64,000 nt of DNA from a virus (taxonomy: Duplodnaviria > Heunggongvirae > Uroviricota > Caudoviricetes), in IMG/VR virus record IMGVR_UViG_3300042691_025398, positions 119,814 to 183,813 of that record; one strand, written 5' to 3'. This document shows positions 574 through 20,402 of the stretch, piece by piece. Numbering within the stretch: the first letter of the stretch is position 1; each line of letters opens with the position of its first letter. Below the pieces are notes generated by a model. It was not told the origin of the DNA, made no database searches, and saw nothing but the letters and a program-made list of their open reading frames with translations. The position numbers and the translations under genes are program-made.

Positions 574-757
574 ATTTCAATTGAAAAAAGCTAAACTTGG
601 AACTGTGTTCATTCACCCACATTTGAATTCTTTTTGAATTGCCGGCAAAATCCCAGTCTCTACCACGTTCGCCAAGATTGATTCTACACCATCTGATGTG
701 TTTTTCAATGTCAACATCATTGTTGGTAAATGTAAATTGTGGTGAGAATCTGGTCAT
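551..757 (-). CDS. hypothetical protein
   Basis: 68-aa ORF, ATGA-coupled to the upstream gene, same strand as neighbours. Confidence 0.6.
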   Translation of the reverse strand: MTRFSPQFTFTNNDVDIEKHIRWCRINLGERGRDWDFAGNSKRIQMWVNEHSSKFSFFQLKYGNLRQR

Positions 758-1227
758 TGTGATATGAGTCTTTCGGTTTCGGCGTGTATCACTCGTTTTC
801 GTAAACTGCTAGAACTAAAACTATGATCACGTGCATTATACACAATTTCAATTGAACGTGTAGCACATTCATGATCCCCGGTGAATGATTGAGTTGCATA
901 TTCAACGCCCAGTATCCTAACATCCAACGGAAGTATTAACAATAGATCCACAAGATCTTGCTCGGTTTGATACACAACCACTTCATCAACATATCGACAG
1001 GCTGCAAGTTGTATTTGCCTTTCCACAATGCTTTGTACTGGTCGGTTCTTGGTGTCAGGACGATCAATTGTGGGGTCTGTTTGCAGTCCGGCTATGAGAT
1101 AGTCGCAGTGATTTTTAGCTTCGGCCAGCATGGCCACATGACCAGCATGCAAGAGATCAAATGTGCTAAACGTGATGCCTATGCGTTTGCCTTGCTCTTT
1201 AAGCGTTTTAATATGATTGAAAATCAA
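754..1227 (-). CDS. cytidylyltransferase (HxGH nucleotidyltransferase, TagD/RfaE-like)
   Basis: FSTFDLLHAGH motif and C-terminal HSFSSSSLR. Start reassigned to TTG at 1227, with a GGAGGAG SD upstream and overlap with the upstream TGA. Confidence 0.85.
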   Translation of the reverse strand: MIFNHIKTLKEQGKRIGITFSTFDLLHAGHVAMLAEAKNHCDYLIAGLQTDPTIDRPDTKNRPVQSIVERQIQLAACRYVDEVVVYQTEQDLVDLLLILPLDVRILGVEYATQSFTGDHECATRSIEIVYNARDHSFSSSSLRKRVIHAETERLISQ

Positions 1228-1415
1228 TAGTAGTCTCCTCCGGGGTTGGTAGCACGTAGCACATAGTCTATGACCGACTGTGGATCTTGTGTCCAAACAT
1301 GATCCGGTTTATTGTGATTGAATGCTGCATTTGGACTGTGCCACCATTGGTCAACTAATTCTTTATTGCCAAAAGAGGCAAGCAATAGCCAGTTGCATCT
1401 TTCTCTAGAGATCAT
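1224..1415 (-). CDS. hypothetical protein (weak resemblance to DUF2384/MbcA C-terminal domain)
   Basis: 63-aa coupled ORF. WWHSPNAAFNHNKP loosely resembles the W-L-x-x-P-N-x-A-L pattern. Confidence 0.55.
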   Translation of the reverse strand: MISRERCNWLLLASFGNKELVDQWWHSPNAAFNHNKPDHVWTQDPQSVIDYVLRATNPGGDYY

Positions 1416-2016: not shown

Positions 2017-2904
2017 TTAGGTTCCCCATGCGTTGCGCCAAATGTCCACTTGTAATCTTGGACTATATCTCCAGCCTCGCTCCATGGCCATTGTGGCCAC
2101 TTGCTGTGTGTTTAGATTGTACACTTGTGGAACTCCGCCCACGGGCATGAGATACACTGGTCCACCAAACCCAGCCATGCGATACTCAAAAACTGCACGT
2201 TCTGCATCTTCCACGTCTTCTTGAGTGGCTACCACAAACTTCAAATAGGCATAGCCAATCATTTCATAGCTTTTCACAATCTCAGGACGAATAGCTGATT
2301 CCCATGCTTCACCTGAGCAGGGCAGCTTGGGACTCACACTAAATGTCAGTCGATCATAATCTCTACCATGTCTAGTGAACTCTTCAAAAAGATAATCTTG
2401 TACTTCAGGATAAAGTTCCTGACTGCCATTGGTTTCAAATGTGACATTCTGTAAACCACGTTTGCGGCAGGATTCAATCATTTCTGGATACAAACGCTGA
2501 TAGCCTAACAGCGGCTCGCCGCCTGTGATCACTAGATGCACATCATCGCTGGGACGAGTGCCCGTGGCCCAACTGCGATTTGGAATTAACTCGTGCATCT
2601 TGTGCACAATGGTTTCCACATCATCCTGTTCGTTGAATTTTTTAAATTCAGGGTAGATACTGGCATAGGTATCACAACCTGAAGTCACCAAAGGCAAGTC
2701 TTCAAACTTTTGATATTGATCAATGTTGCGAATGATTTCCACCACTTCGGGGTTGTGGCCATCAATCACTTCATCTCTAGGTCTTCCAAACTTTCTGCAA
2801 CGGAAGTTACATCCATAGGTGCGAAAGAAAACGCTGGGTACACCTGCCCAGCGACCTTCACCTTGTAAACTGTAGAATATTTCTGTGTAGGTTATTTTTT
2901 CCAT
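2017..2904 (-). CDS. queE: 7-carboxy-7-deazaguanine synthase (radical SAM)
   Basis: EIFYSLQGEG, VFFRTYGCNFRC...GCD, VITGGEPLL, FETNGS, SVSPKL, YLMPVGG and RYSPRLQV are all QueE motifs. Confidence 0.9.
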   Translation of the reverse strand: MEKITYTEIFYSLQGEGRWAGVPSVFFRTYGCNFRCRKFGRPRDEVIDGHNPEVVEIIRNIDQYQKFEDLPLVTSGCDTYASIYPEFKKFNEQDDVETIVHKMHELIPNRSWATGTRPSDDVHLVITGGEPLLGYQRLYPEMIESCRKRGLQNVTFETNGSQELYPEVQDYLFEEFTRHGRDYDRLTFSVSPKLPCSGEAWESAIRPEIVKSYEMIGYAYLKFVVATQEDVEDAERAVFEYRMAGFGGPVYLMPVGGVPQVYNLNTQQVATMAMERGWRYSPRLQVDIWRNAWGT

Positions 2905-2944: not shown

Positions 2945-3499
2945 TTATGCCCGCCACCACTGTTCCCAAGGGAATACCATCCAGGTGTCCTGCTCTGCTT
3001 TGTTTATGTCCATGGCTGAATAATCCATGGTCATTTGTGCTTCACTGCTGCTGTTGTCAACTAGCACAGCAAATCTTACATTGTTGTTCCAGACCTTGTC
3101 CCAAACATAGGTTTCATTAGGCAAACAACTGCTCTGCCAATCTGTTTGTAGCCAATTCATTGTGGCACCGGTGTCATTGATGTCATCTACTATCAATATG
3201 TTCTTTTTGAATGCAGGATCCCAACGACTGTTTATGGTCTCTTGTTGTTCTTGAGGAACATATCCAAATGCATCTTCTGCCATCCATAGATTGCTTTCGC
3301 TTTCGTTGCCATCTCTTAGACTGATATGCAGAGCGTTCATGGGTATATTTAGATACTGACTCAACATGTTTGCAGGAACTAGCCCACCTCGGACCAGTCC
3401 CACGATGTAGTCAGGTCGCCAGTTGTCATGATGTAACTGTCTAGCAATGTCTAACACCATGCCCTTTAGCTGCTGATCATCTATATAGATCTTTTTCAT
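2945..3499 (-). CDS. type I purine phosphoribosyltransferase (Gpt/Hpt-like)
   Basis: IVGLVRGGLVPA, PRPP loop ILIVDDINDTGAT and C-terminal W.VFPWE. Start moved to MKKIYID at 3499 (ATGA overlap). Confidence 0.85.
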   Translation of the reverse strand: MKKIYIDDQQLKGMVLDIARQLHHDNWRPDYIVGLVRGGLVPANMLSQYLNIPMNALHISLRDGNESESNLWMAEDAFGYVPQEQQETINSRWDPAFKKNILIVDDINDTGATMNWLQTDWQSSCLPNETYVWDKVWNNNVRFAVLVDNSSSEAQMTMDYSAMDINKAEQDTWMVFPWEQWWRA

Positions 3500-4281
3500 T
3501 TTAGTGTGGCCTTTACCAGTAGATGCCAACCAAGATACTCACGCACTGCTTCACGCATGGTATCACTCATGGCTGCAAACCAAGGTTCTAATTCAAATAC
3601 ACCTTGTTTGTATGCAGGTACATTATACATGAAACAATGATCTTGTCTAATACGTTCGATCACAAAGTTGTCTTTTAATAACAGCTCCACTTCTTCACGA
3701 GTGAACGCATCTGCATATGGACAGCCTGCTTGAGCTTCAAACTGGTCAAGACCTTTTTGAATCATGGCATACTTCCAAGAGTTTTTGGCATAAACCATGA
3801 ACCTCAATTCGCCATCTGGATTTAACAAGTTGCTGATTTCTTTCACATGATGTGCAATGTTTGGACTATGATGCAACACACCATAGCTGTAAACAAGATC
3901 AAACTTGCCTAGCGCGGAATAATCATCTGTTAGTAGGTTAATTTTGTAGAATTTACCTGCTAGATCAAAAGTTTTAAATCTCTGCATGCAGATGCCAAGA
4001 CTGTCACTGCTGATGTCAATGCCCACATATTCGGCGCCATGTCTAGCAAATTGTTCTGCGTCTGTGCCAATACCACAACCAATTTCCAAAACACGTTTGC
4101 CACGCCAGAGATGAAATCCAGCAAAGTCTAGTATGTGCGGTTCAGCGCGATAACGTTTGGCTGATACTTCTTCAAAATACCGTTCAGTACCCACAGGTTC
4201 TTTGCTGTGCAACACATTACAGGGTTGATTGTTCCAGTACTGTTGGATTTTTTCTAGTATCGGGTCATTTTGATTTGTCAT
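3496..4281 (-). CDS. class I SAM-dependent methyltransferase
   Basis: VLEIGCGIG, GIDIS, FDLVYSYGVLHH and LLNPDG motifs. Confidence 0.85.
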   Translation of the reverse strand: MTNQNDPILEKIQQYWNNQPCNVLHSKEPVGTERYFEEVSAKRYRAEPHILDFAGFHLWRGKRVLEIGCGIGTDAEQFARHGAEYVGIDISSDSLGICMQRFKTFDLAGKFYKINLLTDDYSALGKFDLVYSYGVLHHSPNIAHHVKEISNLLNPDGELRFMVYAKNSWKYAMIQKGLDQFEAQAGCPYADAFTREEVELLLKDNFVIERIRQDHCFMYNVPAYKQGVFELEPWFAAMSDTMREAVREYLGWHLLVKATLK

Positions 4282-7636: not shown

Positions 7637-7638
7637 GA

Positions 7639-8034
7639 TTATTTTGTGAGTTGTTTCAGCTGTTTATATCCACGTGATGTAGGATGTACTCGATCTGGAC
7701 CCACTTCTGGAATCAAGATAAAAGTATCATCATGTGCTCGAGCAATTCTTTTTACAATGTCTGCTTTTTCTGGTTTGTTAGCAGGCACGATCCAAATCAC
7801 ATCATATGATTCTACAAAAGATCGTAATGCAACCAACTCCACTTCGGTGTTTAGATTTTTGTAATCATTACTGCCTAAACTGATTATCACAGTGTTAGCA
7901 GGTTTGATATGTTTTGTATAAATGTTGTTGTAGTCACGACTGTTGATACCATTCTGTGCATAAGACACACACTCGGGTCTTATTTGACCAAGACCCTTGG
8001 CAATGCTGTCGCCCAAAATCAAACATTCAATCAT
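7639..8034 (-). CDS. SGNH/GDSL hydrolase
   Basis: Block I ILGDS, block III SLGSND, block V DRVHP. Confidence 0.8.
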   Translation of the reverse strand: MIECLILGDSIAKGLGQIRPECVSYAQNGINSRDYNNIYTKHIKPANTVIISLGSNDYKNLNTEVELVALRSFVESYDVIWIVPANKPEKADIVKRIARAHDDTFILIPEVGPDRVHPTSRGYKQLKQLTK

Positions 8035-8549
8035 GTGAACAGATCCTCATTCCATTCACGATGACCTTCTCTAAAAGCCATGTTTGCTTGTGTTTCACGA
8101 ACTTCTACTCTATAGCACCACAAGCGATCAGCTTCGCCTGGACCCCACATGTCAGGAATATACACGCCATTCACATATTTGTAAAGCATATCGGCCAGTC
8201 CTTCGCAGCCCAGTCTTGGCAATATGGTAAGTTTTGCTAACCGCTTTTCTTGTAACAGTTTGAACGTTTCCAGCTCTGGATCGTCTTGTGCAACTAGTAA
8301 AGTGTGATCAAATTGATCTTCTAGTATCTTCTTTAGTTCTTTTAGACCACCATAGTCAGCTGCCCAGTTACGCACATCTAATTGATCTGTGCCAAAGTAA
8401 AACTTCATACTGAAACTGTAACCATGAATTAGGTTACAATGGCTGTCCGCACGCCATTGTCGATAGGCACAGGGAAAAGCATCGTGATACTCTTTGGTGC
8501 TGGTGTATTTGTAAACTCTTGTTGGGTATGTTTCGTTAAGGTAAAGCAC
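8031..8549 (-). CDS. queD: 6-carboxy-tetrahydropterin synthase (QueD/PTPS family)
   Basis: SHCNLIHGYS (C-x3-H-G), DYGGLKELK, FDHTLL and VEVRET. GTG start 6 nt after AGGAG. Confidence 0.85.
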   Translation of the reverse strand: MLYLNETYPTRVYKYTSTKEYHDAFPCAYRQWRADSHCNLIHGYSFSMKFYFGTDQLDVRNWAADYGGLKELKKILEDQFDHTLLVAQDDPELETFKLLQEKRLAKLTILPRLGCEGLADMLYKYVNGVYIPDMWGPGEADRLWCYRVEVRETQANMAFREGHREWNEDLFT

Positions 8550-8630: not shown

Positions 8631-8641
8631 AGTGATATTTA

Positions 8642-8965
8642 TTAGCCGTGTGTTTCGCCGCCAAACTCACTGTTGAACTCTTCTTGACCATAGTAGGTTG
8701 CAAACTGTTCACGAAAATCTTTGTCGTTGTCCAACCAATGTTTTACCAAGGTTTGCTTGTCTTCGGGCAGATAATCCCAAGCGTCACGGAAGTATTCTGC
8801 CTGTTCAAGACTGGCCTGTTCACGTGTGTCTTCGGCACGTTCCCAGTTCTCTTCATCGTCAGAATCGGCTAACTCGTCAGCCAAAGTCCATGTGTCCCAT
8901 GCTTGATCGTGAGCATCACCATTAAGTGCTTCAATAATTTCCCATGCTTCTTCTAGAGTTTTCAT
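8642..8965 (-). CDS. acidic hypothetical protein
   Basis: 107-aa ORF, coupled to the upstream gene. Confidence 0.7.
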   Translation of the reverse strand: MKTLEEAWEIIEALNGDAHDQAWDTWTLADELADSDDEENWERAEDTREQASLEQAEYFRDAWDYLPEDKQTLVKHWLDNDKDFREQFATYYGQEEFNSEFGGETHG

Positions 8966-9582: not shown

Positions 9583-9600
9583 GTGCGTTCCTTTTTGGCG

Positions 9601-10506
9601 TTAGCCGCCTGTGATTGTAGTCCAAAAGCGATTGTACCATTTGTTGATTATTTTGTCAATGGTTTCGGATTCATAAACCGGAGCTGTCTCATTTTGGTCG
9701 TGATCAACCACCCGGTCCACTTCATGATCTACCAAATCATTGTAAATGGTGTGTTTTGCCAGTTTATATCTTTCCTGTTTGCTTGCGCTGTGCAAAATCA
9801 CAACCACGTATTCTTGACCCTGGCTTTCCACAAACATGCCCACACACCAACCAGCTGAGTTGGTAAAACCGGTCTTGCTTACCCTAATTTGGTCAAATTC
9901 TAACAACAAAGGTTTGTTGGTATTGTCAATACTGATGGTTCTGATTTTTCTTTTGCGATTAACTTCAAATAACACATGTTTGCGCACACTGGTTTCAACA
10001 ATGAAAGGATACAGTGATGAGATCTGTACCATGTTGCCAACTGACCCTGCAGTGCTCTCATTACTGGAACTTAGCCCTGTGGGATCTAAAAACCTGGTGT
10101 TAACCATTTCTATAGCCTGCGCCTTTTGATTCATTGCTCGGATGAACTCTTTACGGCCACCAGGATAATCTCTTGCGATGCTTTCAGCAGCCACGTTGTC
10201 GCTGCGAACCAACATGGCTGTCATGATATCCTTACGGGCATGTTCTCCTGCTGGCAATTTGCCACCAGGTAACATCTTGATCTTTCGATCAAGGTCACGA
10301 TCATAATCCAGTGACACCATGGCAGTCATGAGTTTGGTGATACTGGCAATAGGCATGGTATCATTATGATACTTGGCAATCGTAACTTGTTGTTTGGTAA
10401 GATTATAAACCCAGACTGCTGTGGGTTTTGGAGTGATTTTTTTATTCGCGGTTGATGCATTGGTAGAGAATAAGGCCAATGCCAACACTAGGATGGTTTT
10501 AATCAT
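9601..10506 (-). CDS. serine D-Ala-D-Ala carboxy/endopeptidase (peptidase S11, PbpG/DacA-like) with signal peptide
   Basis: SxxK (ASITKLMT), SxN (RSDN) and KTG (SKTGFT) triad; N-terminal signal MIKTILVLALALFSTNAS. Confidence 0.9.
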   Translation of the reverse strand: MIKTILVLALALFSTNASTANKKITPKPTAVWVYNLTKQQVTIAKYHNDTMPIASITKLMTAMVSLDYDRDLDRKIKMLPGGKLPAGEHARKDIMTAMLVRSDNVAAESIARDYPGGRKEFIRAMNQKAQAIEMVNTRFLDPTGLSSSNESTAGSVGNMVQISSLYPFIVETSVRKHVLFEVNRKRKIRTISIDNTNKPLLLEFDQIRVSKTGFTNSAGWCVGMFVESQGQEYVVVILHSASKQERYKLAKHTIYNDLVDHEVDRVVDHDQNETAPVYESETIDKIINKWYNRFWTTITGG

Positions 10507-10513
10507 GGTAGAC

Positions 10514-10519
10514 TATTTA
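10514..10519 (-). promoter_or_regulatory. T4 late-type promoter motif TAAATA (representative copy)
   Basis: The same hexamer precedes genes on the minus strand at 8636, 12203, 13672, 27855, 28274, 30137, 39510, 40516, 43761, 44387, 47767, 51034, 58598 and 60822, and on the plus strand at 60934. TAAGTA variants occur at 52677 and 61713. Resembles the T4 gp55 late promoter TATAAATA. Confidence 0.7.
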
Positions 10520-10529
10520 CTTGGCTTGG

Positions 10530-10772
10530 TTAAAGGTCTTCGCCCATGAGCCAACGATCAACCATGCGTTCAGCTTCTTGCTCGGTCAATGCAGTGACCT
10601 TAAACCAAGCTTGTTCTTGATTGGCTTTTATATCAAATGGCACTGCACCACGGAATTCCAATGGCGCATCAAGTTGTCTGGTTATGGTAAATGTCTTCAA
10701 AGCTCGCACTCGGTCAATCAGTGCCGCTGCTTGCTGTTTTAGATTGTCATCATTTGGAATTTCATCTTGCAT
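10530..10772 (-). CDS. hypothetical protein
   Basis: 80-aa ORF with GAGG SD. Confidence 0.65.
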   Translation of the reverse strand: MQDEIPNDDNLKQQAAALIDRVRALKTFTITRQLDAPLEFRGAVPFDIKANQEQAWFKVTALTEQEAERMVDRWLMGEDL

Positions 10773-10780
10773 TCACTACC

Positions 10781-11143
10781 TCAACGAACATATTTGGATA
10801 AATCAGGAGGAGTCCAACCTTCAGGCTTGAGCACCTTACCATCTTCACGTTTACGAACCTTGCCTGTTGCTTGATCTATTTTTGCCATGTTTGAATGTAA
10901 CACTTCATACCATGCTCCGTTAGCATCTACACCAAGACTGTGAATAGCGCCAATGGTGACCACCAGGATATCTATTAGAGCATCCAGGCATTCAATTTTG
11001 TCATCATTGGCCACAGCGTCTATAAGTTCCTTGTGTTCTTCTTCAATCAAGTTGCAGTACATCTTGAACTGTTCACCGTTTAATTTGCCCACGGTTTGAT
11101 CGCAGGCCAACATGAATGCTGCTTGATCTAAAAACACACTCAT
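10781..11143 (-). CDS. all-alpha NTP pyrophosphohydrolase (PRA-PH/MazG superfamily)
   Basis: LIEEEHKEL, ECLDALIDILVV, EVLHSNMAK and REDGKVLKPEGW motifs. Confidence 0.8.
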   Translation of the reverse strand: MSVFLDQAAFMLACDQTVGKLNGEQFKMYCNLIEEEHKELIDAVANDDKIECLDALIDILVVTIGAIHSLGVDANGAWYEVLHSNMAKIDQATGKVRKREDGKVLKPEGWTPPDLSKYVR

Positions 11144-11334
11144 ACCATCTCCTCAGCAATGCCTAGAAATTCTGCCAGTATCAAAAGGCCGCCAGCATGC
11201 ACCAACAGGCCATATGCCAGTAACACACCTGCAAAAATCCTTAGACCGCTTTTGATAAAACTAATGTATTTGTGTTTTACTGGGTCTGGAAATTTATGTT
11301 CGTGATACTCATGAATTTGAATGTCGTCTTTCAT
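11140..11334 (-). CDS. small membrane protein
   Basis: Hydrophobic C-terminal half; ATGA coupling. Confidence 0.65.
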   Translation of the reverse strand: MKDDIQIHEYHEHKFPDPVKHKYISFIKSGLRIFAGVLLAYGLLVHAGGLLILAEFLGIAEEMV

Positions 11335-12155
11335 CGTGGGGCAAACTCCTGTTGTAGTTTAATATTGTCCATGAACTCTTTCTTAACCGCAGGATCAAGT
11401 TTAAAATTGCCTTTCAGCACCGTGGTCTGAGTCAATGAACTGTGTGCCATGATGCCGCGGTTTTCACAGCAACCATGTGTGGCCTGTATGTAAACACCTA
11501 CATGAACGCTGCCTGTGGCCGCCATGATTTCTTTTGCAATATCCATGGCAAGTTCTTCTTGTAGAGTGCCGCGACGAGCACACCACTGTGCAATACGAGT
11601 GTACTTGCTCAAGCCAATCAAGCGATCTGCTGCAAGAATACCAATATAGGCAACACCGTTTACTGGTTGATGATGATGACTGCACATGCTGCGAAGTTCA
11701 CTACGCACAACCAACATACCATCATAGCCATCATCGGTATGGTTAGGGAAAGAAGTAGCGTCTGGCTTAGGCTCGTATCGTCCTGCCATGATTTCGTTAT
11801 AATACATCTTTGCCAGGCGTCTTGCTGTGCCTTGACTGTTAGGATCATTATCACGATCAATCAAGAGTACATCTAACACATGTTCAAACGCCTCAGTGGC
11901 CTCATTGATAAGTTTTGGAAGATCTTCTGATTTTACATAATCACTGATGTTGTCGCCTGCCCAAAAGCGTTTGTTATCTGCTCGCATACGAGCACGTATG
12001 GCATGTGCTATGCAATTTTCATCTGAGGTTGCATGTTCTTTACGAACATAAATGGGTGTGCGTAGTGGTACATATTTGTCTTCAAATGTTTCAGGAACAA
12101 ATTCTGTGCTTTGATCTACGTTCAATAATGGATCTTTAGTAAAGTTATCTGACAA
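11331..12155 (-). CDS. folE: GTP cyclohydrolase I
   Basis: TARRLAKMY, SMCSHHHQP, IGLSKYTRI, RRGTLQEEL and THGCCENRG. TTG start 6 nt after GGAG. Confidence 0.92.
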   Translation of the reverse strand: MSDNFTKDPLLNVDQSTEFVPETFEDKYVPLRTPIYVRKEHATSDENCIAHAIRARMRADNKRFWAGDNISDYVKSEDLPKLINEATEAFEHVLDVLLIDRDNDPNSQGTARRLAKMYYNEIMAGRYEPKPDATSFPNHTDDGYDGMLVVRSELRSMCSHHHQPVNGVAYIGILAADRLIGLSKYTRIAQWCARRGTLQEELAMDIAKEIMAATGSVHVGVYIQATHGCCENRGIMAHSSLTQTTVLKGNFKLDPAVKKEFMDNIKLQQEFAPR

Positions 12156-12191
12156 TTTTTTCTCCGAGTTAGAGTCGAGGATGACTACGTT

Positions 12192-12221
12192 AGTTTACAG
12201 GATATTTAGATCATAAGTCAA
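12192..12221 (-). promoter_or_regulatory. sigma70-type promoter upstream of folE
   Basis: TTGACT-N18-TAAACT with an embedded TAAATA. Confidence 0.5.
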
Positions 12222-12751
12222 GAGCTATGGTCATTTCTTATACCAGTGATTTGCAGCGTATAGCGATTGACCTGACCAAGATTTAATACTAAGTGTGGTG
12301 TACCACCTTGCCATGAAATCCAATCTCCTTGCGTCCAAGTAGGCACTGTTTCAAAGCCAACTTGAAGTCCATGCCCTGGTTGCCAATCCTCTACAAATAT
12401 AATAGTTCTTGTGATTTGATTTAAATCGGTGATGTTTCTATTTTCACAGTATTTTTTGTATCCATCAATGTGCCAAGGTAAAATTTTTCCTGGACTTATT
12501 CTGTGTGCTGCATACACCTTTTGTTCAAGATAGTTGAAACGATCTTCTAAAAAGTCTACAAGATCGGTTGGAATATTTCTTGCAATGGCTATTTCAGTTA
12601 TTGTTGAATATCTTTGTTTGTCTACTTCATAAAGCAACTCAAATCCAGACCATGGATTAGGGTGCACTTCAAAATCACAATCAAGATACCAGTTTCCAAA
12701 ACTCTTTAAATCAACATGTCCGGTTACTAAGTGATAATTTTCTTTTGCCAT
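12218..12751 (-). CDS. 2OG-Fe(II)/cupin-fold oxygenase-like protein
   Basis: LPWHID (HxD) and distal PH; paralogous pattern to 53810-54484. Confidence 0.6.
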   Translation of the reverse strand: MAKENYHLVTGHVDLKSFGNWYLDCDFEVHPNPWSGFELLYEVDKQRYSTITEIAIARNIPTDLVDFLEDRFNYLEQKVYAAHRISPGKILPWHIDGYKKYCENRNITDLNQITRTIIFVEDWQPGHGLQVGFETVPTWTQGDWISWQGGTPHLVLNLGQVNRYTLQITGIRNDHSS

Positions 12752-13647
12752 AAGGCTATGGTCCTGTCCAATCCAGTTTCTAGATCAACCACTGGTGTCC
12801 AGCCAAGATCGCGACTGATAGCCGCAGTACCAGAATTGAGCCAATAAATTTCACCAGGCCTCATGGGCTTGGTATTCCATTGTATTTCTCCTTGCCATCC
12901 AATCATGTTGGCAATCTTGTTTGCGTAATCTTTGATTTTGATCGGACTGTCAGGTCCAATGGTATAGATTTTACCTTGATTACACTGTTCAGGAGTTTCA
13001 ATCACTGTCAACCAGGCTTGCAGCAGATCTTGTATGTAGATGAAATTTCTATAAGGCTCTGCATAGCCCAGTTTGATACGTTCAGGATTCTTTAGCATCT
13101 GAGTGATAATCTGTTCTGTTACAAAGAAATCATTATCACTTCTACCATATGAGTTTGTTTGTCTAATAGCGGTAAATGGAAGATCTAGAGCTCTATGACT
13201 GTACTCAAGATATTTTTCCACTGCCAATTTGGCCACAGCATACGGAGCGTTGGGATTGGGTGCGGTATGTTCATCAAACGCAATGGCCTGTTTTGGTTGG
13301 CCAAACTGTTCAACTTCGTCACTGATAGGTTGCCAGCCATATACCTCCATGGTACTGGCAAACACAAAGTTTTTCAAATTTCGTAAGCGTGATGCAGCAT
13401 CAATTAGATTAACACTGCCTACATAATTGATCTCACTGAATGTGACCTGTTCATAAAAACTTTTTTCCACTTCGGTTCTGGCCGCAAGATGCACTATCAC
13501 ATCTGGATCAGCCTGTTCCAATTCTCTAGTGACATCTGAATGATCACGCAGATCACTCTTGAGTTCTACGACTTCGTGTTTTGCTTGTAGTAATGGCACG
13601 AGATGTTGGCCTATGAAGCCGCTAGTGCCGGTGATGAATATTTTCAT
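12727..13647 (-). CDS. NAD-dependent nucleotide-sugar epimerase/dehydratase (extended SDR)
   Basis: ITGTSGFIG, HLAA, FASTMEVYG, YAVAK (YxxxK) and RNFIYIQD. Confidence 0.9.
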   Translation of the reverse strand: MKIFITGTSGFIGQHLVPLLQAKHEVVELKSDLRDHSDVTRELEQADPDVIVHLAARTEVEKSFYEQVTFSEINYVGSVNLIDAASRLRNLKNFVFASTMEVYGWQPISDEVEQFGQPKQAIAFDEHTAPNPNAPYAVAKLAVEKYLEYSHRALDLPFTAIRQTNSYGRSDNDFFVTEQIITQMLKNPERIKLGYAEPYRNFIYIQDLLQAWLTVIETPEQCNQGKIYTIGPDSPIKIKDYANKIANMIGWQGEIQWNTKPMRPGEIYWLNSGTAAISRDLGWTPVVDLETGLDRTIALWQKKIIT

Positions 13648-13684
13648 TGGGGATTGTTATATTGAAACATATATTTAGCAAGGA

Positions 13685-14890
13685 TCATTCTTCAATTTTT
13701 CTTACATGATACTTGTCGCCGGGCAGATGATCACGATAACGATTGCCTGAACGATTCCATTGCTCGCCGTGTCCAAGAATAATGTCCACAATACGATCCA
13801 CTGTGCCATCAGTCCAATTGGATATCAAGCCCATGTTATGATGTGGCTTGTCTAATAGATTCTCCAGCTTGTGGAATGCGTCATCAATGCTCCAAGGTAC
13901 ATAAAGACGGTTTGGGTCGTTAGCAAAGGTTTCTGGGAAGCTTCTATAAGCAGGGTAAAGCACATTACATCCAAGTGTGTCAGCTTCAGACACAGTGTTT
14001 GATACCCAGTCTTGCAATGCGCAATTGAACAAAACCCTAGAACTGTTAAGAATGTTATAATAGTCATTCTTCTTGAGATTTTCAAAAATGGTTAGTTTGT
14101 GTCCGGCTTGTAGTTCAAGAGCACGTTCTATATACTTGGAATTGTTTGAACGCAGCGGACCACCTTGCAGTACTGCGAATTCAATGTCTTTGTGTCGTCC
14201 CTGTTCATGATACATTTCAATTAGATCCATAAAGAAGTCTGGCTGCTTCTCTTGATCAAATCTAGCTGCAAACACCACACGACGATCTCGTTGATCAAAC
14301 GGTTGAATTTTTTCTGCGCCGCCGATGCGTTCTAACACTTCCTCTTTACCAAATGCTAGGCCAGAAATATTATAGATAGGAGCACGCCATCCAGCAATAC
14401 GCATATGAGCAACCATTTCCTCGTTTGAGGCGAGAACTCCGGTAACAAACTCATTGACCATGCTTTCGTAATATCCCATCCACTTCGCCATGCCCCATAC
14501 ATGAACAAAGTCATCAGGATCAATGGACTGAGCAAGACACCTAACAAAAACACGGGGACGCTGAGCACGAGGCACTTGATCAAATATGTAAGGTAGGCTC
14601 TCGATACCGGGTTGAAACATGTCTTCAAAGTAGATAACGTCGTCATGTTGTATCTCTCCATTCTTGTGCATCTGTACAAGATTCATCATTTGACTCATAC
14701 CGAAGTATGAACGACCATGGGCATCTAGCACTTGACCAACGCTGATGGCATTGCTGTCATCAATAGTGGTACCAGGCACATATACCACATCAAGTTTGCG
14801 ACGATCAAACACTCTCCGATTCCATTCAGTGAGCTGCATGGTATAACGGGATTCATAACTTTCCAATCCCATGTAAAAAAGTTTTCTCAT
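13685..14890 (-). CDS. GT-B fold glycosyltransferase (GT4-like)
   Basis: VFAARFDQEKQP and C-terminal SNTVSEADTLGCNVLYP...FPE resemble GT4 motifs. Confidence 0.7.
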   Translation of the reverse strand: MRKLFYMGLESYESRYTMQLTEWNRRVFDRRKLDVVYVPGTTIDDSNAISVGQVLDAHGRSYFGMSQMMNLVQMHKNGEIQHDDVIYFEDMFQPGIESLPYIFDQVPRAQRPRVFVRCLAQSIDPDDFVHVWGMAKWMGYYESMVNEFVTGVLASNEEMVAHMRIAGWRAPIYNISGLAFGKEEVLERIGGAEKIQPFDQRDRRVVFAARFDQEKQPDFFMDLIEMYHEQGRHKDIEFAVLQGGPLRSNNSKYIERALELQAGHKLTIFENLKKNDYYNILNSSRVLFNCALQDWVSNTVSEADTLGCNVLYPAYRSFPETFANDPNRLYVPWSIDDAFHKLENLLDKPHHNMGLISNWTDGTVDRIVDIILGHGEQWNRSGNRYRDHLPGDKYHVRKIEE

Positions 14891-15318
14891 TTGGTAAGGA
14901 TTCCTTTGGACTTGACCTCTTGCAAGTGCATGGAAGACGCAATAGACTTGTAATATTCCTCTGCGCTTTGTGCTTGATTTAGATCAGGACCAGACTGTGC
15001 TTTCATTGTGGTAAAATCTCCTGCTCTATAATCACCGCTCCAGGCCCTTTGTTTTTGTAGATTTTGAATCTCCTGTCTCAGTGACTGCACTGTGTTGTGC
15101 AAATCACGAATGTCTTCTTGCATTCTACGCATTGGACCATGCCGTTTGTAAATTCTATCTTGATCCTCATGATCTCCACTGGTGAGAATAACCATCATCA
15201 TGAGTTGCCGCAAGGCATTTCTCACTCGAGGATCATTACTGGTCAACGCTTGATCCATTAAATCGGTCAAACGTTCTAGATCATAGTCAGATGAATCTTT
15301 TTCTCTGTATGCAGTCAT
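14887..15318 (-). CDS. hypothetical coiled-coil protein
   Basis: 143-aa ORF with AGAGG SD, coupled. Confidence 0.7.
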   Translation of the reverse strand: MTAYREKDSSDYDLERLTDLMDQALTSNDPRVRNALRQLMMMVILTSGDHEDQDRIYKRHGPMRRMQEDIRDLHNTVQSLRQEIQNLQKQRAWSGDYRAGDFTTMKAQSGPDLNQAQSAEEYYKSIASSMHLQEVKSKGILTK

Positions 15319-15319
15319 A

Positions 15320-15538
15320 TTATCCTCTTGCGGGTCTGCGCATGTCTTGCAGCCACATGTCCTTGGCAGACTTGCCTTGTGAGAACTTCATATACTGTTG
15401 ATAAGCATAGCTCTTCCAGTTATAGAGCTCTTCTTCGTTGTAACGATACCCATACTCGCGACAGAAGTCAAGATACTTCTCAAGATCGTCAAAAACTGCG
15501 TTCACACGAGGGTTGGGTTTGATTACAGGCTTGCCCAT
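15320..15538 (-). CDS. hypothetical protein
   Basis: 72-aa ORF with AAGGAG SD. Confidence 0.7.
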   Translation of the reverse strand: MGKPVIKPNPRVNAVFDDLEKYLDFCREYGYRYNEEELYNWKSYAYQQYMKFSQGKSAKDMWLQDMRRPARG

Positions 15539-15548
15539 TTATTTCTCC

Positions 15549-15740
15549 TTAGTTGTCCAATGGCATTGCATTATATTCACGTACAAGATCAAGCACTTCT
15601 TCTTCACTGTTGCAAATTAACTTGCAGTTGGCCCAATCATTGTCTTCATTGCGGCCACCAATTTCAACCATCCAACCGTTGTCATAGCGATTGATGGTCA
15701 TGGATTCATTTACTTTTGCTAGTTTTGATAATTTTGACAT
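15549..15740 (-). CDS. hypothetical protein
   Basis: Start moved to MSKLSK at 15740 (GGAG SD). Confidence 0.7.
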   Translation of the reverse strand: MSKLSKLAKVNESMTINRYDNGWMVEIGGRNEDNDWANCKLICNSEEEVLDLVREYNAMPLDN

Positions 15741-15750
15741 AAAGGTCTCC

Positions 15751-16218
15751 TTAGATTTTTGTTGACATTGAAGGCAGAGTGGTATTGTAGGTGATACTAC
15801 AACCATTCTCACCGTCTTCACTTACTTCAATGATTACTGTCCGATCAGGATAGCGACCGGCAATGTGTTTATATAGATCGTCTGCGATCATCTCGCAGCT
15901 TTTGTAGTCTAGAACGAGTAACGAATTATTATACAGCCCTTCAAGCCAGCGTTTGAACTGGATGAATTCGATGTCCCGGTCATTGTGGAACACATCGATC
16001 CACACCCGGAAATGGAAAATATGACGGTGCTCATTAGCAAGAAAACTAACATCCGCAAGATTGGGATCCTCCGCTGCTGCTGGATATTTATGGATGCCTT
16101 CTTTTTGAAAAGTGACCCAGATCATGCGCAGTGCTCGATTCATGATACGCTGCATTGTTTCCTGTTGAGCATGAGATTGTGCTTGTGTGGCCACATCAAT
16201 TTCGTTACTGATAGTCAT
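15751..16218 (-). CDS. QueD-like T-fold protein, DpdL-like (candidate CDG decarboxylase)
   Basis: LANEHRHIF fits L-x3-H-R-H-x-F, recalled as the DpdL signature. DIEFIQFKRWL and KSCEMIADDL parallel QueD motifs. Confidence 0.65.
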   Translation of the reverse strand: MTISNEIDVATQAQSHAQQETMQRIMNRALRMIWVTFQKEGIHKYPAAAEDPNLADVSFLANEHRHIFHFRVWIDVFHNDRDIEFIQFKRWLEGLYNNSLLVLDYKSCEMIADDLYKHIAGRYPDRTVIIEVSEDGENGCSITYNTTLPSMSTKI

Positions 16219-16667
16219 GTTTTGATTTGTCCTTTATATGACACATTTGATTTTGTTACAATTGTTAAATTAGCAGCATCCACTTGATCAATTTGAAAAG
16301 GCGCATTGATCCACAGTTTGGTTTCAATATGCTGCCAACTGGCTTGCATTTCTATTATACGATCAACACCACCCTTGAGTAAATCTTTTTGAATACGATG
16401 CTGCGACTTTTCATTCCAATGATCACCATTCCACGTAAAATGATTAGCTGAGTTTGATTCAACTAGATAACCTAGGCTCACATCACATTCAACAAATCGA
16501 GCCACTGTTGATAAATCAATGTCACCGGCAATGAATCCTTGACCCCAGGTATACCATCTATCAATAACGACTGTTTGGTCACGGCTGGGTCTACGTAGAT
16601 GATGCTGCACCCGCACGGATCTATGATCAAGGCTGGTCACGCGATAAAAGTGTGTGGCTACTGTCAT
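16215..16667 (-). CDS. hypothetical protein
   Basis: 150-aa coupled ORF. Confidence 0.6.
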   Translation of the reverse strand: MTVATHFYRVTSLDHRSVRVQHHLRRPSRDQTVVIDRWYTWGQGFIAGDIDLSTVARFVECDVSLGYLVESNSANHFTWNGDHWNEKSQHRIQKDLLKGGVDRIIEMQASWQHIETKLWINAPFQIDQVDAANLTIVTKSNVSYKGQIKT

Positions 16668-16988
16668 TTAGATCTGCCGCATGCTTTCCATTGTGATAAT
16701 CTTACCAAGTTCTGTGTTAAAGTCTTGATCACCAGTGATTATGTAAGTGCGGTCTGTATTTTCATCTCGTTTTCTATCATAGGTTCTAAATGTCACAAGT
16801 GATCCACCAATGACTTTTTTAATGTTGATTCTCAGTCCATCATTGAGACTATGCGGGTCATCTGATATTGCAACTCCACTTGACTTACTGATTAGGTCAC
16901 TTGTGGCATACTCACTCTCATACGCTAGGTGTTTGTTCTCCCAAGCCCATTTGCATTTTCGAACAAACCATTTATCAAACCATTTCAT
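16668..16988 (-). CDS. hypothetical protein
   Basis: 106-aa ORF with GGAG SD. Confidence 0.7.
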   Translation of the reverse strand: MKWFDKWFVRKCKWAWENKHLAYESEYATSDLISKSSGVAISDDPHSLNDGLRINIKKVIGGSLVTFRTYDRKRDENTDRTYIITGDQDFNTELGKIITMESMRQI

Positions 16989-16997
16989 GTTGTGCTC

Positions 16998-17534
16998 CTA
17001 GATTAATTGATCATCTTGATATTTGCCCCAATCGGTAAAACAGGACCTGTCCATGAGACTGTGCAGACTGTGCACCCAAACACCGGGATTGGTGTCTGCA
17101 AAATCACGATCGTCTATCTTGACATGGGTATTGTAGTTCCACAGTTTCACATATGGAATGGGCACTTTGATTATGGGAACGAAACGTGTGCGTTCACACA
17201 GTCCGCCATCGTTGAATTGTTCTACAAATTTAAATGGGATATCAAGACTACACCAGTACCCACGATCCAAAAAAGTTAGTATGAGATTTTCCCATCCAGT
17301 AATATCAGCTGTGGTCAAGGGATGATAGCTGTCATTTGCTCCAAAAAATATGTGCTTGATGTGCTTGCTTGAGTCCACATAGGCATTTTCTTCATCCAGT
17401 GCTGCTTGCACCGCTTCTGTGCTTTGATAACCAATCACAAACAGAGTACGCATGCCATGCATGGCAGTGTGTTCTACTTCGTTGCCAATGAAAAAGTTGG
17501 CATTAGTGTGTCCAAGTCTATTCATAATCGTCAA
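16998..17534 (-). CDS. hypothetical protein in the dpd operon
   Basis: 178-aa ORF with enzyme-like segments EVEHT and HIFFGANDS. Confidence 0.75.
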   Translation of the reverse strand: MTIMNRLGHTNANFFIGNEVEHTAMHGMRTLFVIGYQSTEAVQAALDEENAYVDSSKHIKHIFFGANDSYHPLTTADITGWENLILTFLDRGYWCSLDIPFKFVEQFNDGGLCERTRFVPIIKVPIPYVKLWNYNTHVKIDDRDFADTNPGVWVHSLHSLMDRSCFTDWGKYQDDQLI

Positions 17535-17727
17535 AATTCACTCGTTCATGATCATGTTCAAATTGTTTACGACGTAGATCTCGCAATTGATCACGCACCA
17601 ACAATCTACGTTTTTTCATTTCCTGCAATCGCATGTCTTCGTATATGCCGGTTTTCTCCGCTGTATCAATTTTTTTATCAAGATCTGTGTGTTCCTGCTC
17701 TAACTGTTTGATTTGAGTTTGATACAT
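17518..17727 (-). CDS. DUF465/YdcH-like protein
   Basis: LEQEHTDLDKKI...EMKKRRLLVRDQL. Start moved to MYQTQ at 17727. Confidence 0.75.
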   Translation of the reverse strand: MYQTQIKQLEQEHTDLDKKIDTAEKTGIYEDMRLQEMKKRRLLVRDQLRDLRRKQFEHDHERVNFDDYE

Positions 17728-17756
17728 ACACCTTCCTATAGAAATGATCACTTGCT

Positions 17757-17785
17757 AGTGTACTACCTGTTGGTTATGATGTCAA
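17757..17785 (-). promoter_or_regulatory. sigma70-type promoter
   Basis: TTGACA-N17-TACACT on the minus strand. Confidence 0.7.
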
Positions 17786-17792
17786 TAACAAC

Positions 17793-19319
17793 TTACTCGG
17801 CTTCTAGTGCATCCAACCGAGACTGATCAAGCTCATCTTGGATTTCAGTTTCTTCAGCAACTTCAAAAAGAGCACTAAACATCGAGCTGGCATTTACAGC
17901 ACGTTTGCCTGTGAATCCTCTTGTGCCAATCACCCGTTCCCAGACTCTAGCATGATCGTCAATGATCTGTAGACTCTTTTGCCTATCTTGCGCAGCAAAC
18001 ACACGATCAATTACCTTGACCACATCAAAATCTGGATCCATTGGATGGACCAGCATGTCTGGGGCTGTGCCAGAATCAAACACACGATTGGCACGTTGTA
18101 CTGCTTCAATGTGCATCCACACATTGTGTCCCATCAGCAGTGCATAACTGAAACTGTCCCAACTGGTTTTGCCTTCTTTGCCTATTTTATTTAGGTCGCC
18201 AGGTTTGTAATAGCAAACATCTGATATTTTCAATCTAGCAGAGATTGGAGAATCCTCAAACTGTGGATGAATGCCATCTTGTATCACAGCATCACGGAAC
18301 AGCCTCGAGTCAGTGGCATACTTTTTGTTATCAGCAGTGGGGCTCATGCGATATGACCACTTGTCTCGATTTTCAGTGGCAATGGTATGATACAGTTGTC
18401 CATTTGCAGTGGCCAGGAATGGACTGGCACAGTCAAATGAAATAGTAAAGTTACTGTTGTGATACTGGCGTATGGATCTTTGAATAGCTGTGAGCAACAC
18501 TGCCCATTCCAGTTTGGAGGTGCCCAAGAAGTGCATCCAATCATGTACACCTTTTTCTAATAGTCCATCATGTATGAGTGTAACCAATCGTTTGAGAATC
18601 AAGTGCACATCGCACATGTTCTGTCCACCCATGCCCCAACCATTAAAATGATTTTTATGCTTGTGTGGATCCGAATAGGATTTGAATGTGTCGTACCAGT
18701 AGTCTGCTTCTGCATGATTTGACCCTTGCAACACATTTAGAATCTTGGTATCACCAAAGCGATTGGCCAGCCAGTAGTCATTGTTGTAGCTTGTGGCCAG
18801 CACAGCATCTTCATAACTGGCAATACCTGCTTTGGCTGCCCACTCGGGATTGAGATAGGTCCATGTGGGTATGTCCATGGTCATGCCATAGTCTGCAATG
18901 GTACACTGCCATTCTAGCACAGCCGCACGTTTCTTTTCAGCTGCTTTGTCTGTGGCGTCAGCCCAACGTCCAGGCCACACTCCTTTGGCAATTTGGAATC
19001 CACCGGAGTCTGCTAGAACTGTAGTGTGTTTGCCCCTGCCACGAATCATGTCTTCCTTGGGATTGAATTTCTTTACATCTAGATCAGCATGTCCTGCTGA
19101 ATACAAACACCATTTGTATGGAAACAGACCCATCTGATCATTGAGAAAGTTCATCATTTCCATGTCAGGAATGCCAGCAGGCATGCGTGTGGCGTCAATG
19201 TAGTTTTCATGACGTTGACGTCCAATATAGGTGCTGTAAAAACTGGATACCGCAGGTAAAAACAAAGCGTAGTCGTTTTGTGCTGCGCTTAGGTCATGCT
19301 GAGCTGGTAGTTGATCCAT
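17793..19319 (-). CDS. dpdA: TGT-fold base-exchange transglycosylase, DpdA-like (7-deazaguanine insertion into DNA)
   Basis: TGT motifs in order: DSGGFQ, MTMDIP, NVLQG, GWGMGG, HFLGT, SFDCASP and late GHN. Lies with folE/queD/queE and next to replication genes. DNA versus tRNA substrate is inferred from context. Confidence 0.7.
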   Translation of the reverse strand: MDQLPAQHDLSAAQNDYALFLPAVSSFYSTYIGRQRHENYIDATRMPAGIPDMEMMNFLNDQMGLFPYKWCLYSAGHADLDVKKFNPKEDMIRGRGKHTTVLADSGGFQIAKGVWPGRWADATDKAAEKKRAAVLEWQCTIADYGMTMDIPTWTYLNPEWAAKAGIASYEDAVLATSYNNDYWLANRFGDTKILNVLQGSNHAEADYWYDTFKSYSDPHKHKNHFNGWGMGGQNMCDVHLILKRLVTLIHDGLLEKGVHDWMHFLGTSKLEWAVLLTAIQRSIRQYHNSNFTISFDCASPFLATANGQLYHTIATENRDKWSYRMSPTADNKKYATDSRLFRDAVIQDGIHPQFEDSPISARLKISDVCYYKPGDLNKIGKEGKTSWDSFSYALLMGHNVWMHIEAVQRANRVFDSGTAPDMLVHPMDPDFDVVKVIDRVFAAQDRQKSLQIIDDHARVWERVIGTRGFTGKRAVNASSMFSALFEVAEETEIQDELDQSRLDALEAE

Positions 19320-19683
19320 TACGTTCTTTTTCTAAAAGTATTTGTACCATGCGCACTTGTTCTTGTTTTTCATTTAATTGGTTAACAAGATCTTTCACAG
19401 TTGTATTGACCTGGGCCAATTCTTCCAGCTGTTTCTCTTGTGCACGTTTGGATCTAGCCCACTCCAACGTTTCAATTATTTCAGCGCTTAATGATATATT
19501 AACATCATTAATAGGCAACATCAACCATGACGCACCATCGTACACTTCCATTCTTTGATTCGCAACGTTGTATCTAACGTTGCCTACACCTTGCGCATTT
19601 GGACTACTATTCATGTACATGGGGCCGGGATAGCCACCATGAACAGTAATGTGTGGCGAAGTTGATGTAATTGACTTGATCAT
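19294..19683 (-). CDS. hypothetical protein
   Basis: 129-aa coupled ORF with a coiled-coil C-terminus. Confidence 0.7.
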   Translation of the reverse strand: MIKSITSTSPHITVHGGYPGPMYMNSSPNAQGVGNVRYNVANQRMEVYDGASWLMLPINDVNISLSAEIIETLEWARSKRAQEKQLEELAQVNTTVKDLVNQLNEKQEQVRMVQILLEKERNGSTTSSA

Positions 19684-20402
19684 TTTTGATGTGCAGGCAT
19701 GATGTAACTGTACACAGCTAGACCACTGTCTACTACAATTTCCGCAGCGCCACCATCTGAAAACTTCACACGCTTGTCACCACTAAGGCTCATGATTGAT
19801 TGAAATATAGCAGCTGGATAAGCCCAGGCTCGTTTTAGATTGCCAGTAACATCAGGATGAAACACAAAGTTGCCTGCATGTGTGCTGTGATCTCCAAACA
19901 GGAATTTTAGATTCTGTTTGTCAACCTTAACTTCAAACAGTGGTTCTTCTGAGTTGGCATTCATTTGCATGCGCAGTCTTTGAATGTTTGCCACTGTGGG
20001 TTCAAACTCTACATCCCAGTTCACACCCTTGAACTTTACGTCTTTAACCTGCTGACTCACAATTTCTGCGCTCATGAATCTATAGGTATTGTAAAAGTCA
20101 CCAGTGAGATTTTCAAAGCTCACGCCATCGGGGTCACCATTGGCCTTCTTGGTAATAGACAACTTGGCATTTTCTCTGTATTCAGGAAGATTAAGCAAGA
20201 TTTTTAACTTGCTTAGATTGGGCATGCCAAAGTGACCAATGAACTCTGACACTGGTTTGTGAAACTTGCCTTCAAGCACAACGTTTTTATTTTCTGCATA
20301 TCCAAATATCACGGTTTCCTTGTCAGTGCCGTCAATCTTCACAAGGTCAATGCAACCGAGGTCATGGGTGTGTTCAACTAAATCCAGTAAATGGTCTCTC
20401 AT
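19680..20402 (-). CDS. probable DNA polymerase sliding clamp (T4 gp45-like)
   Basis: 240 aa, two-lobed beta-rich pattern, FGMPNLSKL (cf. gp45 F.I.DL..FL) and C-terminal YSYIMP; position next to polB. Confidence 0.55.
   Translation of the reverse strand: MRDHLLDLVEHTHDLGCIDLVKIDGTDKETVIFGYAENKNVVLEGKFHKPVSEFIGHFGMPNLSKLKILLNLPEYRENAKLSITKKANGDPDGVSFENLTGDFYNTYRFMSAEIVSQQVKDVKFKGVNWDVEFEPTVANIQRLRMQMNANSEEPLFEVKVDKQNLKFLFGDHSTHAGNFVFHPDVTGNLKRAWAYPAAIFQSIMSLSGDKRVKFSDGGAAEIVVDSGLAVYSYIMPAHQK

Follow-up and report, generated by a model that had tools for sequence, protein, structure and literature searches.

A GT4-like glycosyltransferase accompanying DpdL-type deazaguanine genes in an uncultured jumbo phage, a candidate for adding sugar to 7-deazaguanine

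We analysed a window of 64,000 nucleotides (nt) from an IMG/VR virus record (IMGVR_UViG_3300042691_025398; bases 119814-183813 of a 192-kb record with a CheckV completeness of about 55%), in which the gene of a 401-amino-acid (aa) glycosyltransferase (GT) lies in one run with a homologue of dpdL and close to other genes of 7-deazaguanine synthesis. The results of our comparisons suggested that this protein is an active GT4-like enzyme and an optional accessory of DpdL-type modules, where it would transfer a sugar onto deazaguanine; this reading, built on sequences and structure models, is one that we hold to be about evenly balanced. We infer that the acceptor is deazaguanine, either in DNA or before its insertion, and we give the presence of a sugar-bearing deazaguanine in phage DNA an even chance at best. 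To our knowledge, the sugar-decorated DNA bases of phages are all pyrimidines, and we know of eight 7-deazaguanine derivatives described in DNA, none of which bears a sugar. If the reading is true, the product would be a new class of DNA base and, among the purine analogues of all genomes, the first with a sugar, and it would matter for the evasion of restriction, CRISPR, and type IV defences and for the sequencing and cloning of such DNA. New here are a DpdL tree on which the GT was repeatedly lost or gained, the exchange of GalE for a cassette of another sugar-nucleotide enzyme and a cupin-like protein in the subclade of the window, a recurring promoter-like site, and the precedent of the glycosyltransferase HuiG.

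All genes of the finding are on the minus strand (Table 1). Since the relatives of this phage span up to 320-350 kb, we consider it an uncultured jumbo phage; megablast of positions 12000-20000 of the window against phage records gave no match. The comparisons were made on 80 related IMG/VR loci forming one clade, on representatives of the GT clusters, on further IMG/VR loci, on contigs of metagenome-assembled genomes (MAGs), and on cultured phages.

The glycosyltransferase, its link to DpdL and its sugar donor

The assignment of the 401-aa protein to the GT-B glycosyltransferases, made in an initial annotation of this DNA, was confirmed. The protein scored 32.4 bits against the Pfam model Glycos_transf_1 (PF00534; cut-off 26.4 bits, E 8e-8), and its AlphaFold2 (AF2) model reached a predicted local distance difference test (pLDDT) value of 94 and a predicted template modelling score of 0.92. 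The GT-B fold, with two Rossmann-like domains and a cleft, was borne out by the model and by structural matches, the nearest being sucrose-phosphate synthase, BshA, PglA, and PimA (Z 24-27, with a top score of 26.9, over about 320-345 residues). The donor-binding motifs of the GT4 C-terminal domain are R-x4-K and E/D-x7-E, and R210-x4-K215 and D294-x7-E302 of the window GT recurred in at least 90% of a set of 120 homologues (30-59% identity). A dense set of twelve polar and aromatic residues was also near-invariant in the N-terminal domain, which is the acceptor domain (E10, R15, Y16, D56, R60, D90, Y101, Q121, D124, D127, W137, and E142). Conservation and model together make the GT look active and specific for a single acceptor.

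Clustering of the GT family at 90% gave 7,979 proteins, and at 50% there were 217 clusters with E <1e-30. In the clade of the window, the order PolB, p317, p240, p508, p178, DpdL, p72, GT, short-chain dehydrogenase/reductase (SDR), FolE, QueD (p508, p178, and p72 being the 508-, 178-, and 72-aa proteins) was kept in 80 of 80 loci. Outside this clade, DpdL was located within about 3 kb of the GT in all but one of another 35 GT loci for which DNA was at hand (7 cluster representatives, 16 IMG/VR loci, 7 MAG-binned loci, and 5 cultured lineages). Among the cluster representatives (31-51% identity), DpdL was found within 1-2 kb in the seven with DNA; an eighth, judged like the phages Phosso and BCSR5 from gene tables and match coordinates, directly adjoins a 120-aa gene and is accompanied by a PTPS gene. 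The 16 IMG/VR loci were retrieved with two distant GT members as queries, and 15 of them had DpdL within 3 kb while the sixteenth had an abutting QueE. When 185,579 species genomes were scanned with a 12-sequence GT alignment, seven matches were obtained, all of them on phage-like contigs in MAGs and all with DpdL just upstream. The cultured carriers among 50,697 phage records were ACP17, X1/BUDD, BCSR5, the PA5oct group, Phosso, and BUCT-ZZ01, each with DpdL adjacent to the GT or within 3 kb of it; in BUCT-ZZ01 the GT starts one base after the end of the DpdL gene. The other matches in the phage records were weak (E 1e-11) and belonged to the PhiXhv group, with a BshA-like context in which the distant GT of the PhiXhv-15 group adjoins GlmS and a BshB-like deacetylase. 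This weak group aside, the GT family was always accompanied by DpdL or Que genes in the contexts sampled, and we therefore place the GT functionally with the dpd genes, as first proposed; a family member standing independently of dpd genes was not found in this check of co-occurrence and synteny.

One distant set of GT, DpdL, and QueE (locus L102, positions 1-7866; L numbers are our handles for the loci) has a gene resembling tRNA-guanine transglycosylase (TGT) on the opposite strand and lies beside RES-domain, resolvase, and Rep-like genes. Its carrier may be a plasmid or some other mobile element and not a phage.

We then compared DpdL lineages with and without the GT. In phages phiST, RHph_I1_18, Bakedbeans, Ahp1, D479, and MA9V-3, no member of the GT family was found near DpdL with hidden Markov models (HMMs), nor anywhere in the genomes by tblastn with three queries. 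On the DpdL tree, these six lineages were scattered among the GT-bearing rows, and the well-supported branches force at least four changes in the presence or absence of the GT; Ahp1, which has no GT, is sister to PA5oct, which has one (support 99/95). The DNA of phiST was measured to be fully modified with 2'-deoxy-7-deazaguanine (dDG; PMC10516641). The scatter of the GT-less lineages, dDG-bearing phiST among them, implies that the GT is not part of dDG synthesis, and from these sequence distributions it is an optional accessory to DpdL modules. The initial annotation had supposed that DpdL might do something other than decarboxylation where a GT is present. This was not supported, since the metal-binding and acidic residues of DpdL are invariant both with and without the GT and the two kinds of lineages are interleaved on the tree; by this comparison DpdL most likely performs the same chemistry in both, and the GT would add a further step. 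In two of the GT-less phages, DpdL makes up the C-terminal portion of a larger protein, of 383 aa in the Vibrio phage Bakedbeans (L131:9293-10444) and of 293 aa in the Chryseobacterium phage MA9V-3 (L134:9431-10312).

The gene that follows the GT had been annotated as a nucleoside diphosphate (NDP)-sugar epimerase. Its membership of the extended SDRs of the epimerase/dehydratase family stood, with the motifs GxxGxxG, STMEVYG (T-x-E), and YAVAK (YxxxK), while GalE was ruled out: the protein scored 98.7 bits against the GalE model TIGR01179 (cut-off 262.3 bits), shares about 24% identity with GalE, and was under the cut-off for all NCBIfam equivalogs. Among PDB entries, a GDP-6-deoxy-mannose reductase, a UDP-glucose epimerase, and dTDP-glucose dehydratases came closest and ranked about equally. 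In the slot behind the GT, L036, L107, and L094 carry a true GalE (293, 308, and 396 bits, respectively), and 70 of 86 loci were found to have a GalE. The window and six related loci instead hold a non-GalE SDR and a cupin-like gene in this slot (the loci listed with this pair are L013-L016, L019, L027, and L066); the cupin-like gene occurs in 10 of the 80 loci, including all seven with the window-type SDR, and the pair suggests, from gene content, a different sugar in this subclade. An exchangeable sugar-nucleotide cassette beside a conserved GT leads us to expect a true sugar transfer with a sugar that varies between phages. The part of the initial proposal in which the phage makes the NDP-sugar for its GT is thus favoured by the tailoring gene that most loci have immediately behind the GT; the part in which the sugar is placed on a C7 handle gained no support, as described below. 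A nucleotidyltransferase resembling HldE domain II may take part in the activation of the donor sugar, and a homologue was found within the GT cluster in L107 (10351-10779) and L108 (about 3659).

The deazaguanine genes and the proposed pathway

The labels that the initial annotation had given to the two dpd genes were upheld. The LANEHRHIF stretch of the 155-aa protein matches the published DpdL motif LxxxHRHxF, which differs from the CxxxHGH of QueD (PMC10516641), and the protein was matched to the DpdL of phiST and ACP17 by tblastn; its invariant residues are H43, H64, H66, E84, S107, E109, E134, and D135. The 508-aa protein had no match in Pfam (including the TGT model), PHROG, NCBIfam, or PDB sequence searches. 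Its AF2 model (pLDDT 87) gave 50 top Foldseek hits that were all TGT of Z. mobilis (E about 1e-7), and DSGGFQ, which we take to be the catalytic-loop motif of TGTs, is located at residues 104-109 and was invariant in 51 homologues. On motif and modelled fold, the 508-aa protein is a divergent member of the TGT superfamily; it shares 37% identity with EST35_0316 of PA5oct.

The remaining genes fit a DpdL-type (QueC-less) module, and the closest described system is that of phiST, with FolE, QueD, QueE, DpdL, and DpdA3 (Cui, Hutinet et al., NAR 2023, PMC10516641). Like phiST, the window has FolE, QueD, QueE, a DpdL with LxxxHRHxF, and a TGT-superfamily protein, with a MazG-like gene nearby and a DNA polymerase gene adjoining the cluster. 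No match to QueC (PF06508) was found in the 192-kb record, itself about 55% complete. Unlike the window, phiST has neither GT nor SDR, and its DpdA3 is small and devoid of the DSGG motif, whereas the window has a 508-aa DSGGFQ transglycosylase, a GT, a sugar-nucleotide enzyme, and a phosphoribosyltransferase (PRTase). The window QueD scored under the cut-off of TIGR03367 (34.7 bits versus 89.25 bits, E 1.7e-8), and the window QueE is 42% identical to that of BUCT-ZZ01. In the window QueD, the motif published as CxxxHGH reads C-N-L-I-H-G-Y, with the final histidine changed to tyrosine.

Table 1. Location of the features of the window, in order of decreasing coordinates.
Feature	Coordinates	Strand	Basis or remark
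DpdA-like TGT-fold protein (DNA or tRNA guanine transglycosylase), 508 aa	17793..19319	-	Motif and fold
Sigma-70-like promoter candidate, TTGACA-N17-TACACT	17757..17785	-	10/12 consensus matches
DUF465 small protein	17518..17751	-	Pfam PF04325, E 1.9e-10; true start likely ATG at 17727
178-aa protein, no assigned family	16998..17534	-	Always between DpdA-like gene and DpdL in clade
DpdL homologue (T-fold QueD paralogue, predicted 7-carboxy-7-deazaguanine decarboxylase), 155 aa	15751..16218	-	LANEHRHIF; phrog_17812, E 1e-36
Basic 72-aa protein	15320..15538	-	Directly upstream of GT region; clade-specific; isoelectric point (pI) 9.0; no family match
GT4-like GT-B glycosyltransferase, 401 aa	13685..14890	-	Pfam Glycos_transf_1 (PF00534)
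Extended SDR, NDP-sugar epimerase/dehydratase family, not GalE	12727..13647	-	Pfam Epimerase, E 5e-43
Cupin-like 177-aa protein, HxD...H	12218..12751	-	Atlas neighbours are phage clusters, about 20% with PF05118
FolE, GTP cyclohydrolase I	11331..12155	-	Pfam E 1.9e-38; phrog_2197
QueD (PTPS family)	8031..8549	-	PF01242, 57.7 bits, above cut-off
Rieske ring-hydroxylating oxygenase alpha subunit, complete	5413-6600		Pfam E 9e-36
Purine PRTase beside queE	2945..3529	-	Pfam Pribosyltran, E 6e-13; weak xanthine PRTase and HGPRTase matches
QueE, 7-carboxy-7-deazaguanine synthase	2017..2904	-	NCBIfam QueE models, E 4e-13 and weaker
HldE-domain-II-like sugar-phosphate nucleotidyltransferase	754..1296	-	TIGR02199, E 1e-22, below cut-off

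The chemistry of FolE, QueD, and QueE is established for these families, and in the pathway that we propose these three enzymes would produce 7-carboxy-7-deazaguanine. In a second step, DpdL would decarboxylate this compound to 7-deazaguanine, and in a third, deduced from fold, motif, and context, the 508-aa TGT-fold protein would exchange guanine in DNA for 7-deazaguanine. The GT would finally move a sugar, drawn from the nucleotide sugar of the next gene, onto deazaguanine in DNA or onto the base before insertion; the donor would probably be UDP-galactose in most relatives, which have GalE, and another tailored sugar in the window, which has the SDR and the cupin. The attachment could be at a ring or exocyclic nitrogen, for which HuiG is the precedent. 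Virion DNA would in this way come to contain a deazaguanine with a sugar, which would give additional protection against host nucleases. The second step is a published prediction, DpdL being no more than a predicted decarboxylase in the paper that named it (PMC10516641). In that study, expression of DpdL and DpdA from phiST or ACP17 in E. coli yielded no dDG, and the authors suggested that a further enzyme may be needed in the case of ACP17 (PMC10516641); the GT step might explain this failure of the ACP17 pair.

The initial annotation placed the sugar on a C7 handle. This idea is unsupported, since dDG carries no C7 substituent and the candidate hydroxylases are not conserved: the Rieske oxygenase and the cupin-like protein were rejected as core handle-makers, with the Rieske gene lying within 10 kb of the GT in just 5 of the 80 related loci and the cupin-like gene being restricted as given above. 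The SDR was also considered as a reductase that would form a hydroxymethyl handle and was rejected, its scores for sugar-nucleotide families far exceeding that for a thioester reductase.

The initial annotation also stated that no sugar-bearing 7-deazaguanine is known in DNA, and the literature that we searched agreed with this, no description of a glycosylated deazaguanine in DNA being found. The papers on ACP17 and BUCT-ZZ01 report nothing on DNA modification. The DNA of PA5oct withstands several enzymes with G-containing sites, and its modification is uncharacterised (PMC12191111); a sugar-bearing deazaguanine might explain it. Extended to all carriers, our proposal is that widespread phages, PA5oct, ACP17, X1, BCSR5, Phosso, and BUCT-ZZ01 included, have glycosylated 7-deazaguanine DNA with a sugar that varies through the adjacent gene, a generalisation that we put forward tentatively and with somewhat less confidence than the proposal for the enzyme itself. 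The prediction is directly testable, as six GT lineages are cultured and phiST DNA is a natural dDG substrate.

Related enzymes and alternative acceptors

The comparison with the T4 alpha- and beta-glucosyltransferases, made in the initial annotation, proved valid for function only. As in T4, which decorates 5-hydroxymethylcytosine, a phage GT-B enzyme would use a UDP-sugar to decorate a modified base as an optional layer. However, the window GT shares no sequence family with the T4 enzymes, its fold is nearer to GT4, and its presumed acceptor is a purine analogue that has no hydroxyl. The match to DNA-bound T4 alpha-glucosyltransferase (AGT) reached Z 20.9 over 323 residues and ranked under about 24 GT4-type chains of Z 21-27.

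Two other systems are closer in acceptor. In Kutzneria albida, HuiG of the huimycin pathway transfers the sugar of UDP-GlcNAc onto a nitrogen of a free 7-deazapurine, and the GTs of the huimycin family bear a GT4-type Pfam domain (bioRxiv 10.64898/2026.04.15.718813). Compared by description only, HuiG and the window GT would both act on a 7-deazapurine from the FolE-QueD-QueE route; unlike the window GT, HuiG acts on a free base derived from preQ0 and belongs to an actinomycete secondary-metabolite cluster that has no DpdA. The second system is eukaryotic. The queuosine GTs QTMAN/GTDC1 and QTGAL add a sugar to a 7-deazaguanine derivative already in nucleic acid, and GTDC1 is a GT4-type GT-B enzyme; their target is the cyclopentenediol hydroxyl of queuosine in tRNA. 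With no QueC, QueF, QueA, or QueG in its record (about 55% complete), the window phage would not make this side chain.

Several points weigh against the proposed transfer to deazaguanine in DNA. Retaining GT4 enzymes mostly target hydroxyls, and dDG has none. In every GT-bearing phage the acceptor is a prediction from the genes. The tight pairing of the GT is with DpdL and not with the transglycosylase, which fits a step on a small molecule at least as well as a step on DNA, and the loci are dominated by a few large clades, so that the independent contexts number about two dozen and not hundreds. In fold searches of BFVD and PDB, T4 AGT fell close to a pteridine GT and to many GTs that act on small molecules, and among such models the fold alone would not tell a DNA acceptor from a pterin acceptor. 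The GT is also acidic (pI 5.6, with a family median of 5.8); the DpdA-like protein is as acidic as the GT, so charge is uninformative. The predicted complex of GT and DpdL scored 0.00, which is uninformative either way.

The pairing with DpdL also speaks for an alternative in which the sugar goes onto a free deazapurine or pterin that never enters DNA, giving a huimycin-like glycoside of a deazapurine or, from the FolE product and with DpdL as a PTPS-like enzyme, a glycosylated pterin. DpdL is a small-molecule T-fold enzyme, the transglycosylase is not always near, and HuiG-type GTs act on a free 7-deazapurine. The tetrahydrobiopterin glucosyltransferase BGluT of Synechococcus is moreover a close fold neighbour (Z 23.3, rank 10), and the synthesis of a pterin glycoside calls for just such a set of FolE, T-fold enzyme, SDR, and GT. 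Nevertheless, we regard this alternative as unlikely. QueE is present in every cluster and the TGT-fold protein in the larger ones, and both serve DNA modification; a profile of the GT family found no pteridine GT in the PDB up to E 0.01; a pterin or a metabolite resembling a nucleoside antibiotic would be of no evident use to a lytic phage; and the GT-less DpdL lineages yield dDG in DNA.

It is less likely still that the GT acts outside the deazaguanine pathway, on a hydroxymethyl pyrimidine, a phage or host protein, or sugars of the host envelope, and that its neighbours only reflect the clustering of early DNA-metabolism genes. The persistence of the GT-DpdL pair across phage sizes and lineages, while the rest of the neighbourhood changes, argues against this, as does the phage-record search, in which the weak PhiXhv matches were the sole exception to the company of deazaguanine genes. 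For the hydroxymethyl pyrimidine in particular, no match to a thymidylate-synthase-like hydroxymethylase, which is the T-even route to the acceptor, was found in the 192-kb record (about 55% complete). What speaks for an outside role is that GT4 acceptors are highly varied, that GalE and heptose-type nucleotidyltransferases are typical of envelope polysaccharide pathways, and that the PhiXhv-15 GT is accompanied by GlmS and the BshB-like deacetylase instead.

The least probable alternative, which we consider improbable, is that the GT-B protein is a helper or subunit of base exchange by large DSGG transglycosylases, comparable to DpdB for bacterial DpdA, with a sugar-nucleotide site that is only binding or regulatory: GT-bearing clusters carry large (416-540 aa) DSGG-type transglycosylases whereas GT-less phiST has a small DpdA3, no such transglycosylase was matched by HMM near DpdL in the six GT-less lineages, and ACP17 DpdA and DpdL by themselves were inactive in E. 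coli, but the donor-binding motifs are near-invariant, several smaller phages have GT and DpdL with no large transglycosylase detected nearby, and the sugar-nucleotide gene is kept after the GT yet exchanged for another kind, which is sensible only if the sugar is used.

Transcription and neighbouring genes

According to the initial annotation, one promoter heads a contiguous gene run that includes the GT, and the sequence elements of this claim are present. The promoter-like TTGACA-N17-TACACT lies at 17785-17757 on the minus strand, inside the 41 nt that separate the 508-aa gene (stop at 17793) from the DUF465 gene. Positions 7000-20000 contain 39 promoter-like sites compared with 32 +/- 6.5 in shuffles, and as this is no excess, the match proves little by itself. 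A TTGACA-N17-TAnAAT was also found directly upstream of DUF465 in the related loci L015 and L027, and within the 3' end of the p508 gene in L081, L090, L067, and L031, with spacers that differ; the C-terminus of p508 diverges, so the true gene end was read in only some loci. The run comprises, as listed, the DUF465 gene and genes for proteins of 178, 106, 150, 155 (DpdL-like), 90, 72, 143, and 401 aa (GT), and neighbouring genes adjoin or overlap by a few bases. The distance from the stop of the GT to the start of the SDR gene is 37 nt, as claimed, and this gap holds no stable hairpin (minimum free energy -1.6 kcal/mol, z 0.61). In agreement with the initial annotation, no credible minus-strand terminator was detected in 12727-17785, the one weak match of the scan being inside a coding region. 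The run extends beyond 12727 with the cupin-like gene, folE, a MazG-like gene, queD, the PRTase gene, and queE. With further promoter-like matches inside the run, a single transcript would be plausible from the sequence.

The small proteins of the run are kept to different degrees. DUF465, present in 17 of 80 related loci, is not a core member; the 178-aa protein was found in 76 of 80, and also in L094 and L105-L110, and the 72-aa protein in 80 of 80. The 178-, 106-, 150-, 90-, 72-, and 143-aa open reading frames had no match in Pfam, PHROGs, NCBIfam, or PDB sequence searches, and for the 178-aa protein the scores of an Atlas search were also <0.8.

PRTase homologues adjoin QueE in BUCT-ZZ01 and PA5oct as well (L001:7093-7554 and L093:10172-10606). 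The enzyme could turn the guanine set free by base exchange back into GMP, or could, by analogy, make a deazaguanine nucleotide, for which tubercidin biosynthesis is a precedent. Between the PRTase and Rieske genes, the window encodes an S-adenosylmethionine (SAM) methyltransferase (3496-4281; Pfam E 2e-17; 24 of 80 loci), and a 293-aa protein with no assigned family (4265-5146) is kept in 44 of 80 related loci. The relatives L105, L106, and L107 were binned in MAGs of Haliscomenobacter and Chitinophagales, for which a Bacteroidota host or a binning artefact is possible. Elsewhere in the same phage record, outside the window (C1:65930-73888), six radical SAM genes are arranged in tandem within about 8 kb.

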